This document shows positions 8,557-16,377 of a DNA stretch of 64,000 bases, in pieces. Position 1 is the first letter of the stretch. Each line of letters opens with the position of its first letter. The stretch is from contig CAYVYN010000001.1 in the NCBI GenBank assembly GCA_964455905.1, positions 210,960 to 274,959 of the forward strand. Direction: 5' to 3'. The position numbers and the translations under genes are program-made. Under the pieces are notes generated by a model. The model was given only the letters and a program-made list of their open reading frames with translations, did no database searches and had not been told where the DNA came from. This stretch comes from an uncultured bacterium (GTDB taxonomy: Bacteria; Chlamydiota; Chlamydiia; Chlamydiales; Rhabdochlamydiaceae).

Positions 8557-9315
8557 ATGACTACACCTTGCTTTATAGCTTCTCTAAATGCTTTTTCTGG
8601 CGCATATACCCAATCGGATTTTTTCGGAAAAGTAATCATGGGAGCTTTATTTGTTTTATCTATCGTGTGTTGGATCGTTCTTTGCTACAAAATATGGCAA
8701 ACAAAAAAAACTAAAGCATCTTGCATATCTTTTGCTAGAATCTTAAAAAAGCACAAAGACCAAATTTTGGCTTTAGAAAAGTCAGACATCTCCTATAAAG
8801 GCGGACAACAATTCCCTCAACCTTTTGCAGAAATTTACTTTATTTTAAAAGAGAAAACTCTTGAAACCCTAAATAAAAAGCTATACTTCTTAGAGCAGCA
8901 AGGTCAAGGAAAAGAAAACGTATATCTTACTACAAATGACATAGACCTTCTCGAGCAATATGTTTCAACAACCATCTCCACGCAATATAAAATACTAGAA
9001 AAACATGTTTTTATTCTTTCCACCATAGTAACCCTAGCGCCCTTTTTAGGCCTATTAGGCACGGTATGGGGAATACTTGTCACATTCGCAGAACTTCACA
9101 CAGGAAGCTCTGCGAGCTCGAGTTCAGCAATCTTAGGAGGCCTTTCTACAGCTCTTGCTACAACAGTTCTTGGATTAGTTATAGCTATCCCCGCTCTTAT
9201 TTCTTATAATTACTTAAAAACAAATCTAAAGTCTTTTTCTTCTGATATGGAAGACTTCCTGTACACTCTGCTTTCAACCTTAGAATTACAATACAGAAAA
9301 GTCGATCTAAATTAA
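8557..9315 (+). CDS. tolQ: TolQ (MotA/TolQ/ExbB proton channel)
   Basis: Three-TM layout with LAPFLGLLGTVWGILVTF, the family hallmark. First gene of a tolR/tolB/pal cluster. Confidence 0.85.
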   Translation: MTTPCFIASLNAFSGAYTQSDFFGKVIMGALFVLSIVCWIVLCYKIWQTKKTKASCISFARILKKHKDQILALEKSDISYKGGQQFPQPFAEIYFILKEKTLETLNKKLYFLEQQGQGKENVYLTTNDIDLLEQYVSTTISTQYKILEKHVFILSTIVTLAPFLGLLGTVWGILVTFAELHTGSSASSSSAILGGLSTALATTVLGLVIAIPALISYNYLKTNLKSFSSDMEDFLYTLLSTLELQYRKVDLN

Positions 9316-9324
9316 GGATTCTCT

Positions 9325-9753
9325 ATGAAAAACCGACGCTCGATCTCAAACCGATTGCAAAACGATGAAGAAGAGTCCCTATTAAATCTGACGCCTCTTA
9401 TAGACGTCGTATTTGTTGTCCTAATTATTTTCATTCTTATAGCTCCAATGCTCGACATTGACAAAATCCAATTAGCCGCTTCTTCTACAAAAAAAGAAAA
9501 AACAACCCCAGAAGCCTCCCCTATTACAATACAAGTCAAAGAAGACAACTCTATTTGGATTCAGAAAAAAAAGGTATCCTATGAAGAGCTTTTTCAGATC
9601 CTAGTACAAGAGAAAAAAAAACACCCCAATCGAATACCACAACTTTTTCAAGATAAAAAAGCTCAATTCGGAACCTATCAGACAATCAAAAACAGCGTAG
9701 AAAATGCAGGGTTCGAAGAACTCGACGTGATTTTACAGCCGGGTTCGCCATGA
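9325..9753 (+). CDS. tolR: TolR (ExbD/TolR family)
   Basis: LNLTPLIDVVFVVLIIFIL is the single-TM signature. AAGGA RBS. Confidence 0.8.
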   Translation: MKNRRSISNRLQNDEEESLLNLTPLIDVVFVVLIIFILIAPMLDIDKIQLAASSTKKEKTTPEASPITIQVKEDNSIWIQKKKVSYEELFQILVQEKKKHPNRIPQLFQDKKAQFGTYQTIKNSVENAGFEELDVILQPGSP

Positions 9754-10514
9754 TTTCTGGTATAAAAAACCAAAAAATAAAAAAAATAAGCTATATAATT
9801 ATCAGCATTCATTTATTGTGTATAATATATATAAATATATATTCAGAAAAAAAGCCGCGCGAAAAAGAAAAAAAAATTACAGTAAAAACATTTCAATCTA
9901 ATCCCGCAGTCCCCATAACAAAAATACAAACTATTAAAAAAAATCCAACAACCCCATCCACTACCCCTTCCCCCAAAAAAGAAACGCCGAAAGCTCCAGT
10001 TAAAAAAGCTGAACCAAAAGTTTTACCTAAAAAAACGACTCCAATAACAAAAAACAGCCCGCCTACTGAAAAAAAAACAGAAATTAAAGCTGAAAAGAAA
10101 CAGGCTCCCGAACCCCAGGTAAAAAAGAAAAAAAATATCGCACTCGAAAAATCTCTAAAAGAAATCAAAGAAAGCATTGCTAAAATAGAAGCAGAAAATG
10201 ATAGAATAAGAACTAGCTTACCGTCTAAGAGTGCAACTTTAGAAGAAGAAATTCTTCCAAATGATTATGCTTCTTCTTTGGTTTGCTACCTACAGGAACA
10301 ACTCCAATTACCTGATATTGGAGAGGTGAAAATTCAAATAACGCTATTTCCTAACGGAACAGTAGAAAAAATGACAGTATTATCTGCAGAAAGTGAAAAA
10401 AACAAAAAAAGAATACAAGAGAACCTACCAAATTTGCAGTTTCCGCCTTTTCCTAAAAATGCAAGAAATTTGGACAAACAAACTTTTATACTTACCTTTT
10501 GCAATGAAATTTAA
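9750..10514 (+). CDS. tolA: TolA/TonB-like envelope-spanning protein
   Basis: N-terminal TM, a long Pro/Lys-rich spacer (PKKETPKAPVKKAEPK...) and a small C-terminal globular domain. ATGA overlap with tolR. The position matches tolA. Confidence 0.55.
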   Translation: MISGIKNQKIKKISYIIISIHLLCIIYINIYSEKKPREKEKKITVKTFQSNPAVPITKIQTIKKNPTTPSTTPSPKKETPKAPVKKAEPKVLPKKTTPITKNSPPTEKKTEIKAEKKQAPEPQVKKKKNIALEKSLKEIKESIAKIEAENDRIRTSLPSKSATLEEEILPNDYASSLVCYLQEQLQLPDIGEVKIQITLFPNGTVEKMTVLSAESEKNKKRIQENLPNLQFPPFPKNARNLDKQTFILTFCNEI

Positions 10515-10535: not shown

Positions 10536-11903
10536 ATGAAATACAGAAAGATCACCCTCTTCGCCTCACTACTAGCTCTGGCTTTTATAGCTTCTATAGA
10601 AGCTGCTCCTACATCAGGGCCTCAAGAAATTAGAGTACAACTCTTAACAGAGACAAAACTTTCCTCCATTTACCTTTCCTCTTTTCATTCAGAAGGTGCG
10701 AATTCTACCTTGTCTTCCGCTTACTTAAAAGAACTCGATAAGATCTTGGAATATGATTTTAATCATAACGGGAAAACAACAGTTTTAAGTAAAAACAACG
10801 CAAAAGAAAACATCCTAAAAGCAGTAACAGCAGAAGGACTCACTGCTCAAGCAATTGGCGCTCCTTACGCAGTTTCGTTTAGCCTAAAAGGCAACAACCT
10901 TCAATGTAAAGCGTATAACCTTCAAAAAAAAACAGCAAAAACATTTTCTGAAATTGTGCTCACAGGGTCACTTCCTCAAGACAGGCAAAAACTTCATAAA
11001 TTAAGCGATACCATTCACGAAACATTATTCAACTGTAAAGGCATAGCTAGCTGTAAAATTTTATATGCATTTCAAAACAAATCTGCTGACGGTAACTGGG
11101 TTTCTGAAATTGCAGAATGTGATTCTGATGGAGAAAACAAAAGAATTTTAACGAAAGAAAACAGCTACTGTGTAACCCCTGTTTCAATCCCAAAAAGCGA
11201 GGAATTTCATAAAGACCTTTTTCTTTACGTCTCCTATAAAACAGGCCAACCAAAAATTTTCATCGCCTCAAAAGAAACAGGAAAAGGAAACAAGGTAGTA
11301 GATATTCGAGGAAATCAGATACTCCCAGCCATCTCTAAACAGCGCGATAAACTTGCCTTTATTTGTGATGCAAGCGGAAGAACCGATCTATTCGTGCAAA
11401 CACTTAACCCTGAAACAGGGAAGACAGGAACGCCCCACCAACTATTTTCTTACCCTAGATCAACTCAAGCATCTCCTACATTTAGTCCAGACGGATCAAA
11501 AATAGCTTTTGTATCCGACAAAGACGGTGCACCTAGAATTTACCTAATCTCTTCTAAACCAGAAGACAAAAGACAGCCCGCTCAGCTACTAACAAGAAAA
11601 AATAAAGAAAATTCTTGTCCAAACTGGTCTTCTGATGGTACAAAATTGGCTTATAGTGCTAAAACGGAAGGGATACGCCAAATATGGATTTACGATTTCA
11701 ATACAGGGGAAGAAAAACAACTCACTTCTGGTCCTGGCGATAAAGAAAATCCTTGTTTTGCACAAAATAACTTACACATTGTATTTAACTCAACCGACGG
11801 CCCGTATTCAGATTTATACGTAGTAAATTTAAATCAACCAAATGCTATAAAAATAACCAAAGGCTCTGGTAAAAACCATTATCCAAACTGGAGCTTACGC
11901 TAA
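10536..11903 (+). CDS. tolB: TolB periplasmic beta-propeller protein
   Basis: Signal peptide, then repeated PTFSPDGSKIAFVSDKDG and PNWSSDGTKLAYS propeller blades. Confidence 0.85.
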   Translation: MKYRKITLFASLLALAFIASIEAAPTSGPQEIRVQLLTETKLSSIYLSSFHSEGANSTLSSAYLKELDKILEYDFNHNGKTTVLSKNNAKENILKAVTAEGLTAQAIGAPYAVSFSLKGNNLQCKAYNLQKKTAKTFSEIVLTGSLPQDRQKLHKLSDTIHETLFNCKGIASCKILYAFQNKSADGNWVSEIAECDSDGENKRILTKENSYCVTPVSIPKSEEFHKDLFLYVSYKTGQPKIFIASKETGKGNKVVDIRGNQILPAISKQRDKLAFICDASGRTDLFVQTLNPETGKTGTPHQLFSYPRSTQASPTFSPDGSKIAFVSDKDGAPRIYLISSKPEDKRQPAQLLTRKNKENSCPNWSSDGTKLAYSAKTEGIRQIWIYDFNTGEEKQLTSGPGDKENPCFAQNNLHIVFNSTDGPYSDLYVVNLNQPNAIKITKGSGKNHYPNWSLR

Positions 11904-11932
11904 ATTTCATCAAATAAATGAGAGAACCAATT

Positions 11933-12619
11933 ATGAAAAAATCCTTACTTTTCGCTTTAATGACATCCTGCATCAGCTTACTTATCCTAGGTGGCTGTAA
12001 AAAAGACTCTGGAGCTGTATGGGATGACTCCACTAGCATGGGAAACTACAAACGCGCTAAAGAACGCGTACTTTGGGGTGCGTCTTCTGAGGGAGAAATC
12101 GCTATGGCAGATTCTAAACTTTTTGCATCTTCTGACGACGACTTTGTTCCTCTTCAAGATGATGACCTTAAATTACAGTTTTCTGAAACAGTCTTCATGC
12201 AACCTAAAGAATCGCCAGGAGAAGAAAACAGCTCTATTCCTGGAATTTCTGGATTCCAAACACCTTACGGAAGTTTAGCTACGATTTTTCAAACTGTACA
12301 TTTTAATACAGATGAATACGTGATAAAAAACAAAGAAGAAATAGCTTCCATTCAAAAAATGAGTTCCTATTTAAAATCACATCCCAAAACATACATTTTT
12401 GTCGAAGGGAACTGCGATCAAAGAGGCCCAGAAGCGTATAACCTATCCCTTGGAAGCAGAAGAGCGAATGCTGTAAGAAACATGCTCATCCAAGAAGGTG
12501 TTAATCCCGATCAAATTTACACAATTAGCTATGGGAAAGAAAAATTACTAAATTCCAAAAACACCCCAGAAGCTTGGGCTCAAAATAGACGCGCTCAATT
12601 TAAAATATATTCAAAATAA
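11933..12619 (+). CDS. pal: Peptidoglycan-associated lipoprotein Pal (OmpA-like domain)
   Basis: Lipobox LILGGC. OmpA-C motifs NCDQRGPEAYNLSLGSRRANAV and NRRAQF. Start moved to MKKSLLF, which follows GAGAGAA. Confidence 0.85.
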   Translation: MKKSLLFALMTSCISLLILGGCKKDSGAVWDDSTSMGNYKRAKERVLWGASSEGEIAMADSKLFASSDDDFVPLQDDDLKLQFSETVFMQPKESPGEENSSIPGISGFQTPYGSLATIFQTVHFNTDEYVIKNKEEIASIQKMSSYLKSHPKTYIFVEGNCDQRGPEAYNLSLGSRRANAVRNMLIQEGVNPDQIYTISYGKEKLLNSKNTPEAWAQNRRAQFKIYSK

Positions 12620-12624
12620 CCTAA

Positions 12625-12669
12625 TTCCGGGGAAAGTCCTTCCCCGGAACTTTATCCCTTTTATTTTTT
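12625..12669 (+). terminator. Strong hairpin plus T-rich tail after pal (possible intra-cluster attenuator)
   Basis: TTCCGGGGAA (12625-12634) pairs perfectly with TTCCCCGGAA (12640-12649) around a 5-nt loop. A T-rich stretch follows, up to the next ATG at 12670. Confidence 0.55.
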
Positions 12670-13266
12670 ATGAAAATACCATCTATCGTTTTTTTACTAA
12701 TAAACATCCTTCTTGTAGGATGCACTCCGCATATGGCTGTTTTACAACAAGACAAACATGAAACCTCAATTGCTCTAAGAGAAGTTCTTCAAGAAGTAGC
12801 TGATTTAAAGCACACTTTAAATAACTTGCAAGTAGAAATGCAAATTCTAGACGAACAATTTAGAATACAAGAATCAATTTTAAAAACAAAAACACAGACT
12901 TCTCATGACAAAAAAACTAAGGGAGAAGACCTATCCTTCTTGGATAACAGAATAGCATCCTTAGAACAAAAACAAAATAAAATGTCAGCTTATGCTTCAA
13001 AAATAGAAGAATTGGAATTTTCATTAAACGAACAAAAAAAGCTCCTTCAAGATATTTCACAACTAAAATCTACACTCTCTGTCTTAGAAAAAACTCTTTA
13101 CCAAGAGCAAACTGAAGTTTTGTACCAAGTAAAAGCAGGCGATTCTCTTGAAAAAATAGCAAGACTACACAAAACGTCTGTAAATGCAATTAAACAAGCA
13201 AATAACCTATCCAAAAATACAATCATGATCGGGGAAGAATTAAAAATTCCTTCTGGCGACTCATGA
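12670..13266 (+). CDS. Coiled-coil lipoprotein with C-terminal LysM domain
   Basis: Lipobox LLVGC, about 120 aa of heptad-like sequence, then YQVKAGDSLEKIARLHKTSVNAIKQANNL...IGEELKIP (LysM). Confidence 0.7.
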   Translation: MKIPSIVFLLINILLVGCTPHMAVLQQDKHETSIALREVLQEVADLKHTLNNLQVEMQILDEQFRIQESILKTKTQTSHDKKTKGEDLSFLDNRIASLEQKQNKMSAYASKIEELEFSLNEQKKLLQDISQLKSTLSVLEKTLYQEQTEVLYQVKAGDSLEKIARLHKTSVNAIKQANNLSKNTIMIGEELKIPSGDS

Positions 13267-14084
13267 AAAATGCAAGTATCGGCATTTTTGATTCTGGCCT
13301 AGGGGGTCTTACTGTCATGCGAGCGATAAAAGACCTGCTCCCCGATGAAAATATTGTTTATTTTGGAGACACTCTGCACTTACCCTACGGTAATAAAAGT
13401 GAACAAACAATACTGCGTTATTCCCTAGAAAATGTACAATTCCTACAAAACCTAGGGATCAAGCTACTAATTATTGCTTGCCATACAGTTTCAACAACGG
13501 CCTATCAAACAATAAAAAAAGCTTCTTCCATCCCGATACTTGAAATGGTTGAACCTAGTATTGATCTGCTTAAAAGGTACTGCCAAGAAAAAAAAAACTC
13601 ACCTCAAATCACAATTCTTGGAACAAAAAGAACAATTGATTCAAATGTCTATCAAACTAGACTTCTATCAAATATTCCCTTTGCGAACATAAAAGCAATT
13701 TCCTGCCCTCTTTTTGTTCCTTTGGTCGAAGAAGGATACATACAACACCCAATCGCGAAAACTATTATCCAAGAGCAATTAAAAGAGATGAACGGAGTCG
13801 ATTTTGCCCTTCTTGCGTGTACTCATTATCCACTTTTACAATCCCAAATACAAGAAACGCTAGGGCCTTCTACTATTTTAATAGATCCTGCCATTGCTTG
13901 CGCACAAGCCGCTTTTGATTTCCTCAAAAAAGAAGACCTTTTAAACCCCTCTGGAAAAAAAGGCGAATATGCTTTTTACGTTTCTGACCATCCTGAAAAA
14001 TTTCGCTTAATGGGCGAAGAATTTTTAAATTGTCCGGTAGAGCCGATTTTTTCTACAAAAATACCATCAGCACTTAGTGTTTGA
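13263..14084 (+). CDS. murI: Glutamate racemase
   Basis: IGIFDSGLGGLTV, IIACHT (first catalytic Cys) and ACTHYPLL (second catalytic Cys). ATGA overlap with the LysM gene. Confidence 0.9.
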   Translation: MKNASIGIFDSGLGGLTVMRAIKDLLPDENIVYFGDTLHLPYGNKSEQTILRYSLENVQFLQNLGIKLLIIACHTVSTTAYQTIKKASSIPILEMVEPSIDLLKRYCQEKKNSPQITILGTKRTIDSNVYQTRLLSNIPFANIKAISCPLFVPLVEEGYIQHPIAKTIIQEQLKEMNGVDFALLACTHYPLLQSQIQETLGPSTILIDPAIACAQAAFDFLKKEDLLNPSGKKGEYAFYVSDHPEKFRLMGEEFLNCPVEPIFSTKIPSALSV

Positions 14085-14171: not shown

Positions 14172-14876
14172 ATGACACAAAAGAAAAGAATTATTTTAAT
14201 CGAAGACGAAGAAGATATAGCAGCACTCCTTAAGTTACAAGCTGAGCTTTCAGGCTATAAACTTCACGTGGAGGTCGATGGGATTAACGGATATCGGGCT
14301 ATCGAAAGAGAAAAGCCGGATCTAGTACTTTTAGATATAATGCTCCCTGGGCAAAATGGATTTGATGTCTGTCGGAAAATGAAAAACGACTCCGACCTTA
14401 AAAATATTCCTATCATAATTCTTACAGCTAAAGCAGAAGAAATCGATGTGATTTTAGGTCTAGAATTAGGTGCCGACGATTATATAGCTAAACCTTTTTC
14501 TCCAAAAATTCTATTTTCAAAAATAAAGGCTCTTCTAAGAAGATCTAAAGAACTAGAAAAAAATTTAGAAGTAATTTCGTTTGGAGAGTTTGTTTTAGAG
14601 GTAGACCGCTATCTATTAAAAAAGGGAAATAAAATCATTCCTGTCACTCTATCAGAATTTGGTATCCTAAAAAGACTTTTAGCTAATAAAGGAAAAGTTT
14701 TAACCAGAAACCAACTCCTAGATGATATTCATAACGACGACGCATTTATCGTAGACCGTAATATTGACGTACACATCGCTTCTTTAAGAAAAAAGCTTGG
14801 ACCCAGCTTTGACGGAATTGAGACCGTTAGAGGTGTTGGATATCGATTCAAAGAAGAACATGCAGTTTCTCATTAA
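14172..14876 (+). CDS. OmpR/PhoB-family response regulator
   Basis: The receiver has IEDEED, the phospho-acceptor context LVLLDIMLPG, ILTAK and AKPF. The winged-helix output has VHIASLRKKL...VRGVGYRF. Confidence 0.85.
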   Translation: MTQKKRIILIEDEEDIAALLKLQAELSGYKLHVEVDGINGYRAIEREKPDLVLLDIMLPGQNGFDVCRKMKNDSDLKNIPIIILTAKAEEIDVILGLELGADDYIAKPFSPKILFSKIKALLRRSKELEKNLEVISFGEFVLEVDRYLLKKGNKIIPVTLSEFGILKRLLANKGKVLTRNQLLDDIHNDDAFIVDRNIDVHIASLRKKLGPSFDGIETVRGVGYRFKEEHAVSH

Positions 14877-14917
14877 AAACTACCGCATAATTTTATCTTG
14901 CTAAAAAGGAAAAATAA

Positions 14918-15361
14918 ATGAAACGCAACTTACTTATACTCGGTTCTTTAACCTGCATTCTTTGCAGCTGCGAAACAAAGACTGGAACAGGAGCTTTGGC
15001 TGGAGCTGGCGTAGGAGCTTTAGCTGGTGGATTAATCGGGGGAAACGCAACTGGGGCCCTCATAGGGGCTGGGGTAGGAGCTCTCGCAGGTGGACTAGTA
15101 GGAGCAGCGCTCGACGAGCAAGATAGAAAAATCATGCAGCAAAACGCTCCTCAAACCCTACAAAAAATAGACTCCAAACAACAACTAACTATCCCAGATG
15201 TTGTAGCAATGACAAAAAATGGCCTTAGCGAAGAAGTTATCATCAACCAAATCAAACACACAGAAAGCATTTTTCACTTAACTTCGGATGAAATCATAGA
15301 ATTAAAAAATTCTGGTGTTTCAGAAAAAGTCATCCAGTGTATGATCAATACCGCCAACTAA
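14918..15361 (+). CDS. Glycine-zipper lipoprotein (SlyB/Pcp-like N-terminal part) with a small C-terminal domain
   Basis: Lipobox ILCSC, then a duplicated GAGVGALAGGLIGG / GAGVGALAGGLVGA glycine zipper. Confidence 0.6.
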   Translation: MKRNLLILGSLTCILCSCETKTGTGALAGAGVGALAGGLIGGNATGALIGAGVGALAGGLVGAALDEQDRKIMQQNAPQTLQKIDSKQQLTIPDVVAMTKNGLSEEVIINQIKHTESIFHLTSDEIIELKNSGVSEKVIQCMINTAN

Positions 15362-15384
15362 GATTTTTTGGTAGAAGGAGAGCA

Positions 15385-16377
15385 ATGCTAACAAAAACAC
15401 AAGCAGTTAAAAAGAATCCTCAAACATTTAATTTTTATGAAGAATTCAAAGCTTGCACACTGTTTTATGCAAGATTTCATCTCATTTTTTTATCTTGTTT
15501 GTTTTTACAGCTTTTGTTGTTTTTTGTTTTTTTCCCCTACCTAAGTAAGTCTGCTGCAAGCGCTTTTATTCCAGCATTTTTTTTGTTAACCCTATTTTCA
15601 TACCTAGTTATTCTATTTTTCTTCCAGACTAAGCGTCCTATGCAACTACTTAATATGAAAGAAAAACTAAGCCTTCATTTAAAAGCGCAAGGACTCTCTC
15701 CCTTAGAAATCGCAGATGCTATCCAAAAAGAAGCTTTTTCATTAATTGAAGAAGAACTGAGTTTCTACAGTGCTTCCTCTTCATTTACCTCAATAAATCC
15801 TGTTCTTTCCAAGTTGAAAATACGACTCCACTGGCAAAATTTTCATCTAATGAAAGAACTCCTTTTTTTATTAGCTATAGATGAACTCACAAATATCATA
15901 AAAAAAACCCCACTGGATCCAACTACTCATATCAAACTGACCGAAACATACAAAAACTTAAGCCTTATCTATCTTACTCCTGCTTTTTCCTGGATTCCTG
16001 TAGAATTCTCTTCTGAAGCTATGGAAAGTAAGTTTCAGTTCTTCTCTGAAAGAGCTATCGAAGAAATTACTGTGTTACAAGACTACGGGATAGAAAACTC
16101 CTGGATCCACTCGACTCTAGCAGAAATCTATCACTTACAAAAGCGACCAGAAAATGAAATTAAAGAATATGAAACTCTTTTAGAAATTATGCCAGAAAAT
16201 GAAAAAATCTTATTCCAACTAGGTATGCTATACTTTCAAGAAGGACTTAACTCAAAGGGTTTAAAAGTTTATGAAAAGCTCTTAACCTTAGATCCATCAC
16301 AAGCAGATCAAATTATTAACTACTACGGATCGTACACAACATACGAAACATCCCTTCTTTCATCTGTTTCTTCCTAA
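15385..16377 (+). CDS. Membrane protein with C-terminal TPR repeats
   Basis: Start set at the ATG preceded by AGGAG (the track start overlaps the upstream gene). Two hydrophobic segments, then a TPR-like LAEIYHLQKRPENEIKEYETLLEIMPENEKILFQLGMLYFQEG. Confidence 0.5.
   Translation: MLTKTQAVKKNPQTFNFYEEFKACTLFYARFHLIFLSCLFLQLLLFFVFFPYLSKSAASAFIPAFFLLTLFSYLVILFFFQTKRPMQLLNMKEKLSLHLKAQGLSPLEIADAIQKEAFSLIEEELSFYSASSSFTSINPVLSKLKIRLHWQNFHLMKELLFLLAIDELTNIIKKTPLDPTTHIKLTETYKNLSLIYLTPAFSWIPVEFSSEAMESKFQFFSERAIEEITVLQDYGIENSWIHSTLAEIYHLQKRPENEIKEYETLLEIMPENEKILFQLGMLYFQEGLNSKGLKVYEKLLTLDPSQADQIINYYGSYTTYETSLLSSVSS

Follow-up and report, generated by a model that had tools for sequence, protein, structure and literature searches.

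The gene that directly follows pal in the tol-pal cluster of an uncultured member of the Rhabdochlamydiaceae encodes a coiled-coil protein with a LysM domain, and the interpretation that we favor, with moderate confidence, is that this protein serves as a non-enzymatic accessory to chlamydial Tol-Pal, binds peptidoglycan and is encoded directly after pal throughout the phylum. The gene (positions 12670–13266, 198 codons) lies in a window of 64,000 nucleotides from GenBank assembly GCA_964455905.1 (contig CAYVYN010000001.1, positions 210,960 to 274,959 of the forward strand); coordinates given below are those of the window, and the cluster from tolQ to murI is on the + strand. The assignment, which draws on sequence comparison and predicted structure, is based on a conserved surface on the first helix of the protein together with the near-obligatory overlap of its gene with pal, and the post-pal gene probably encodes a sixth component of the Tol-Pal machinery of the envelope. 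The locus varies the known design of the Tol-Pal operon, and its post-pal product is uncharacterized and widely misannotated. A previous interpretation made from the letters of this DNA, designated here the sequence-only reading, had described the tol-pal gene order, the lipoprotein, its coiled coil and LysM domain, an ATGA overlap with the glutamate racemase gene murI and a hairpin after pal, and all of these features are present in the sequence.

A profile of the LysM protein family gives matches in 299 of the 300 Chlamydiota genomes that were sampled, and 39 of 41 related genomes contain full-length homologues. When species-representative genomes were scanned, 260 loci were identified, 80 of which were kept and combined with 12 further loci to give a set of 92; pal is directly upstream of the LysM gene in all 92 of these related loci with upstream DNA. 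Junction statistics were compiled for 93 loci that include the window's own, with loci L002–L020 left out. The pal and LysM genes overlap in 35 of these loci and are separated by 0–20 nucleotides in 40 and by 21–60 nucleotides in 13, and murI follows the LysM gene in 77. Among the 77 LysM–murI junctions, 54 are overlaps (20 of exactly 4 nucleotides) and 19 more are gaps of 20 nucleotides or less, together 73 of the 77. The window has a 4-nucleotide overlap of this type (ATGA, 13263–13266), in which the TGA stop codon of the LysM gene shares bases with the ATG of murI. Members of the family have a coiled coil and a single LysM domain in about 170–250 residues, are secreted and are encoded after pal; they include proteins of named Chlamydia species, of Protochlamydia amoebophila and of P. 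naegleriophila, as well as those of more than 90 loci from metagenome-assembled genomes. The most distant members, which have no lipobox, share the same gene context. These results bear out the proposal that the cluster is tightly packed and conserved, and the order pal, LysM gene, murI holds phylum-wide. The description of the module as lineage-specific was too narrow, as the family spans the Chlamydiota and includes the genus Chlamydia, where it occurs without murI and without a lipid anchor. Outside the Chlamydiaceae, murI is missing after the LysM gene in loci L036, L039, L051, L054, L068 and L105, a group that includes a Simkania sp. chromosome, and in such loci a response regulator gene follows the LysM gene directly or after about 1 kb.

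The 198-residue open reading frame, together with its domains and the family profile, defines a protein with three parts. The N terminus, MKIPSIVFLLINILLVGC, comprises a signal peptide and a lipobox (12670–12723), in which LLVG-C18 conforms to the pattern [LVI][ASTVI][GAS]C after a hydrophobic stretch and is conserved in close homologues. The protein is a predicted lipoprotein, probably acylated at Cys18. The public gene call (P0001) begins at Met22 and gives a protein of 177 residues from which the signal peptide and lipobox are lost; the 198-residue form starting at 12670 is considered correct because homologues conserve the signal-peptide N terminus. The central part is helical. A heptad scan shows periodicity at approximately residues 24–70 (segment 1, 12739–12879) and 87–145 (segment 2, 12928–13104), joined by a polar linker of residues 71–86, and an AlphaFold2 model with a mean predicted local distance difference test score (pLDDT) of 85.6 has helices at residues 19–77 and 84–144. 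The C-terminal part is a LysM peptidoglycan-binding domain (residues 152–194, 13123–13251). Its match to PF01476 is complete, covering model positions 1–43 of 43 with 51.3 bits against a cut-off of 20.9 (E 1.1e-13), and the top Foldseek matches of the AlphaFold2 model are LysM domains that superimpose with root mean square deviations of 0.6–1.2 Å. In the family alignment, the residues corresponding to Gly157, Asp158, Leu160, Ile163, Ala164, Asn178, Ile185 and Gly188 of the LysM core are invariant. The window protein deviates at two other positions of this domain: it has Glu189 (13234–13236) where 87% of the family has Gln, changing GQEL to GEEL, and Asn183 (13216–13218) where 87% has Asp.

Segment 1 carries the family motif E-x-R-x-E-x-x-D-L-K-H. 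The most conserved polar residues of helix 1 are Glu38, Asp45 and His48, each of which is kept in about 75–78% of 137 diverse members, and in our reading of the heptad register all three are located outside the a/d core. Conservation outside the core fits a binding surface rather than residues that serve merely to pack the coil. A scan of 30 family members detected no enzymatic Pfam domain.

The family extends to the pathogens of the genus Chlamydia. In genomes of 1.0–1.3 Mb, assembled in one or two contigs, a near-full-length family match is found right after pal, and the Chlamydia matches span positions 8–215 of the 216 in the profile. The organisms, identified by exact-sequence look-up, are Chlamydia pneumoniae, C. 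pecorum, C. psittaci, C. abortus and others. The orthologue is followed by a gene of 125–132 codons and then by ahpC and groEL on the other strand. This arrangement (tolQ to pal, the gene in question, a small open reading frame, tsa/ahpC and groEL2) we take to be the order of CT596–CT604 in C. trachomatis. The pair CT600/601 has been tabulated as "Pal / PapQ" (PMC11841636). Based on the conserved locus order and this table entry, the window protein is assigned as the environmental-chlamydia orthologue of CT601/PapQ, an assignment by position in which the sequences compared are from other Chlamydia species. The proteins belong to the same profile family, share the post-pal position and combine a coiled coil with a single LysM domain. 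They differ in that the Chlamydia orthologues examined have a signal peptide without the lipobox Cys and that their gene is followed by the 125–132-codon gene and ahpC in place of murI. The absence of murI at the locus fits the statement that Chlamydia species lack MurI (PMC7154730).

The orthologues are deposited under a variety of enzyme names, namely "N-acetylmuramoyl-L-Ala amidase", "endopeptidase LytE / p60 precursor", "peptidase M23", "periplasmic hydrolase" and "soluble lytic murein transglycosylase". The C. pneumoniae protein Q9Z7C6, for example, is labeled "endopeptidase LytE/p60 precursor", and those of C. pecorum and C. psittaci are labeled "N-acetylmuramoyl-L-Ala amidase". These names are unjustified, as the 30 members scanned showed no detectable catalytic domain. 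The misannotation is systematic in the Chlamydia loci L111–L119 and L121–L123, where the proteins comprise a coiled coil and one LysM domain only. A literature search (CT601, papQ, LysM with Tol-Pal in chlamydiae) found no functional study and no paper that deals directly with the post-pal gene, only table entries and reagent catalogue numbers.

In Escherichia coli, cpoB directly follows pal, and the LysM gene occupies the equivalent slot, as the sequence-only reading had pointed out. The resemblance to CpoB (YbgF) includes the position as the last tol-pal gene, a periplasmic location, here predicted, and an N-terminal coiled coil. It is conceivable that the LysM protein is a functional replacement for CpoB, its coiled coil sensing the state of Tol-Pal and tuning septal peptidoglycan through PBP2/PBP3-RodA/FtsW or through hydrolases. 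Such a role is otherwise unfilled, in that no CpoB-type N-domain exceeded the Pfam cut-off in 41 related genomes, and the predicted co-transcription with murI, a gene of peptidoglycan precursor supply, would be in keeping with it. It is also in keeping with a 2025 survey in which CpoB outside the Proteobacteria is mostly an outer-membrane lipoprotein encoded next to tol-pal (PMC12204202).

Homology to CpoB, which the sequence-only reading had proposed to look for in the coiled coil, did not emerge from any comparison. The reference was E. coli CpoB, and a protein search for others yielded only enterobacterial CpoBs with at least 84% identity. Comparison of the family with E. coli CpoB by hhalign gave a probability of 7%. 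In a profile search of the PDB, the YbgF N-domain (2wz7) ranked with dozens of unrelated coiled coils at E 0.06, and the similarity of the coiled coils is no better than that to coiled coils in general. The window protein had no match to PF16331, the TolA-binding trimerization domain, at E ≤ 1, and this domain is absent from the top Pfam families of the 30 members, which instead list the generic GAS, crescentin rod and tropomyosin families. The Foldseek search of the AlphaFold2 model returned LysM matches only and no CpoB signal. When 1.84 billion protein representatives were searched with a profile built from the N-domain only, 381 matched at E ≤ 1e-10. Among the best 150 of the 381, all except two giant coiled-coil proteins are of about 140–310 residues with the N-domain, and a LysM pattern is present near the C terminus in 133 of these 148; the rest are mostly pattern misses or truncated sequences. 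No TPR domain was matched in the window protein, the C terminus of which is occupied by LysM. The LysM protein therefore has no detectable homology to CpoB, and the view that it is a CpoB is rejected, all five homology tests being negative or non-specific.

The known mechanism of CpoB acts on PBP1B-LpoB. No GT51 (PF00912) transglycosylase domain was found in the genome that contains the window or in 29 of the 31 genomes searched, and the lack of a class A PBP in this genome means that the LysM protein cannot act through PBP1B-LpoB, the known partners of CpoB. A mechanism of that type thus fails in the form known from CpoB, and the sequence of the LysM protein has no feature that points to contact with a synthase. 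The two remaining genomes, G015 and G033, have short GT51 open reading frames of 221 and 261 codons, the size of monofunctional enzymes. In sum, the LysM protein shares the position of CpoB, and nothing shows a shared mechanism; a CpoB-like coordinating role is possible, with position as the sole positive evidence, and we regard functional replacement of CpoB as unlikely. A separate candidate for a CpoB component, the transmembrane and TPR protein encoded at 15337–16377, was considered as the TPR half of a "split" CpoB and was rejected (BLASTP against CpoB, E 11). In our reading of the sequence, its two N-terminal transmembrane helices and their positively charged flanks would put the TPRs in the cytoplasm.

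Only a single good-quality genome among those sampled, G037 (0.8 Mb, 90% complete), has no LysM protein. Searches of this genome found no TolB, no Pal and no Mur ligase, whereas the genome of the window gave five Mur ligase matches. The joint absence of three adjacent genes could, by itself, reflect an assembly gap. Since the Mur ligases, which are on two other contigs in the genome of the window, are absent as well, the loss appears to be real. Thus, in this single lineage, the LysM gene was lost together with peptidoglycan synthesis and Tol-Pal.

The nearest rivals of a Tol-Pal accessory are a staple that resembles Braun's lipoprotein and a regulator of a peptidoglycan hydrolase. Braun's lipoprotein (Lpp) is an outer-membrane lipoprotein that spans the periplasm as a short trimeric coiled coil and is covalently linked to peptidoglycan by its C-terminal Lys. 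The LysM protein might similarly be a stand-alone, non-covalent staple between the outer membrane and peptidoglycan that is merely co-expressed with Pal. The lipobox, the coiled-coil stalk and the C-terminal wall-binding domain agree with such a staple, as does the loss of the gene along with peptidoglycan synthesis in G037. The attachment of the window protein would differ from that of Lpp in being made non-covalently via LysM; its two-segment stalk is longer, and its C terminus reads ...KIPSGDS, with no C-terminal Lys for covalent linkage. No Lpp structure was among the matches of the PDB profile search. In addition, many members of the LysM family are not lipoproteins: among 148 representatives, the share with a lipobox-like motif is about 58%.

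Several observations weigh against both the staple and the Tol-Pal accessory. The lipid anchor is missing from about 40% of the representatives and from the Chlamydia species examined, and the coil varies in length within the family, segment 2 of the window protein being about 18 residues under the consensus. Because so many members have no anchor, a simple staple from outer membrane to wall cannot be the mechanism of the whole family, and the variable coil length argues against a fixed-length ruler. The anchorless proteins nevertheless keep the helix 1 motif and the adjacency to pal. We therefore doubt that the protein is only a staple. For the preferred interpretation, as a Tol-Pal accessory, the lipid anchor is best described, from its distribution among the sequences, as an optional reinforcement and not as the core of the mechanism. 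The accessory interpretation has three further points to contend with: common regulation, and not direct contact between the proteins, could explain why the gene stays next to pal, LysM domains are able to bind other polymers of N-acetylglucosamine, and the AlphaFold2 monomer model has a predicted template modeling score (pTM) of 0.37 and is uninformative on the oligomeric state.

The second of these rivals is that the protein, without being catalytic itself, regulates or scaffolds a peptidoglycan hydrolase such as AmiA, the NlpD-annotated carboxypeptidase or SpoIID. The combination of a coiled coil with a wall-binding module recalls EnvC (coiled coil and LytM) and NlpD (LysM and LytM), and chlamydiae are reported to be without EnvC/NlpD-type amidase activators and without FtsEX (PMC13104611). 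However, the window protein gave no LytM/Peptidase_M23 match, the top families of the 30 members scanned do not include one, and in the loci examined the gene never adjoins amiA or nlpD, its linkage being to pal. This makes a hydrolase regulator very improbable.

Two characterized LysM proteins offer comparisons. BB0323 of Borrelia burgdorferi, a diderm with an unusual envelope, is a lipoprotein with a C-terminal LysM domain, and the cell requires it for fission and for an intact outer membrane; it differs in having an unrelated N-terminal region, a gene that is not linked to tol-pal and proteolytic processing. Closer at hand, septal localization and binding to sacculi have been shown for the LysM protein NlpD of Waddlia (PMC4083446). 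This is also a periplasmic chlamydial LysM protein and provides a precedent for LysM reading septal peptidoglycan, although it belongs to another family and another locus, beside amiA, and contains a peptidase-type domain but lacks a long coiled coil.

A tentative mechanism for the Tol-Pal accessory can be outlined. The LysM protein would be exported; in the lineage of the window it would carry a lipid on Cys18 and probably reside in the outer membrane. The two coiled-coil segments would form an elongated stalk, on which the polar face of helix 1 (Glu38, Asp45 and His48) may dock a partner, most plausibly a component of Tol-Pal. The C-terminal LysM domain would grip the glycan strands of peptidoglycan. 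According to published work, Pal contacts the stem peptide of peptidoglycan; LysM would add a second, glycan-directed wall contact beside that of Pal and would help to link the wall with Tol-Pal and the outer membrane during constriction. Both the LysM gene and murI are presumed to be expressed from the tol-pal message.

In the window, this message would pass through a hairpin. The spacer between the pal stop codon and the LysM open reading frame is 50 nucleotides long and contains, directly 3′ of the stop codon, a perfect GC-rich 10-bp stem with a 5-nucleotide loop (12625–12649), formed by TTCCGGGGAA (12625–12634), the loop AGTCC and TTCCCCGGAA (12640–12649). A T-rich tail, CTTTATCCCTTTTATTTTTT (12650–12669), reaches from the stem to the LysM start codon. 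The predicted free energy is −18 kcal/mol with a z-score of −3.0, and none of 200 shuffled sequences folds as well. The sequence occurs once in the genome and is not a repeated element, and no Rfam family matches it. Hairpins in the pal–LysM spacer were found in three genomes only, those of the window, of L028 from the same genus and of L031, each with a spacer of about 50 nucleotides. The three have no sequence in common; all are GC-rich and begin a few bases past the stop codon of pal, with runs of T after the stem, and those of L028 and L031 resemble canonical intrinsic terminators with T tracts. The best reading of the window hairpin, from its form and position, is a leaky terminator or a 3′-end stabilizer that would set Pal above the downstream genes, and because of it the LysM gene and murI are probably expressed less strongly than pal. 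What speaks against termination is that the consensus rule calls for at least five T in the eight bases after the stem and the + strand tail, CTTTATCC, has four, so that the + strand hairpin, the stem of which is itself strong, fails narrowly and the scan listed the − strand only. The perfect stem proposed in the sequence-only reading is thus confirmed, but its place in a conserved module is not: because most relatives have a pal–LysM overlap or a gap of 20 nucleotides or less, the hairpin is a local embellishment outside that module.

The other genes of the cluster are in the expected order upstream. The first, tolQ (8557–9315), encodes a MotA/ExbB family proton channel (PF01618, E 2.9e-28) and is kept upstream in related loci. 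It is followed by tolR (ExbD/TolR, 9325–9753; PF02472, E 5.1e-21) and by a tolA-like gene (9750–10514) whose product has a transmembrane anchor, a Pro/Lys-rich spacer and a TonB-like C terminus. The evidence for the latter consists of weak NCBIfam TonB matches and a conserved position between tolR and tolB. The tolA-like protein also matches NCBIfam NF038014, "inclusion-associated protein", with 52 bits, under the cut-off of 200, and this name may be attached to chlamydial homologues of TolA. The tolB gene (10536–11903) scores 428 bits with the chlamydial TolB family NF002183 (cut-off 405). The pal gene (11918–12619) encodes an OmpA-domain lipoprotein with the lipobox LILGGC (PF00691, E 3e-21) that scores 110 bits with TIGR02802, under the cut-off of 125. 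On the other side of the LysM gene, murI (13263–14084) scores 209.6 bits with TIGR00067 against a cut-off of 146.65, and both catalytic-Cys motifs of the translated glutamate racemase, IACHT and ACTHYP, are intact. Downstream of murI (14172–16377) are genes for an OmpR-type response regulator, a glycine-zipper lipoprotein and the 346-residue protein mentioned above (15337–16377), which has two transmembrane helices at the N terminus and TPRs at the C terminus. The order of this block is the same in at least 35 related loci (among L028–L106), with 75–98% identity in the response regulator.

Chlamydiae divide without FtsZ, the pathogens with no more than a transient ring of peptidoglycan, and the way in which the outer membrane follows this ring is poorly understood. 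Jacquier et al. are said to have reported, in 2015, that Pal and Tol proteins are present at the septum of Waddlia. The post-pal gene is near-universal in the phylum, encodes a wall-binding domain and carries at least four wrong enzyme names in pathogen genomes; these annotations should be corrected to LysM coiled-coil Tol-Pal-associated protein, in place of amidase, LytE, M23 peptidase or transglycosylase. The finding also adds to a recent picture in which, outside the Proteobacteria, a lipoprotein accessory fills the post-pal slot, here with a different domain solution. A further and bolder suggestion, to which we give little credence at present, is that the protein of the CT601/PapQ family coordinates envelope constriction in chlamydiae, filling a role that is otherwise vacant in these organisms without FtsZ: the conserved face of helix 1 would bind the energized Tol system (TolA or TolB-Pal) and LysM would read the nascent septal ring, making the protein a convergent replacement for CpoB built from different domains. 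If this were true, invagination of the outer membrane would be coupled to peptidoglycan synthesis or turnover without CpoB, PBP1B or LpoB. As it stands, the post-pal protein provides a concrete candidate for a part of this process that is testable by genetics in laboratory strains of chlamydiae.

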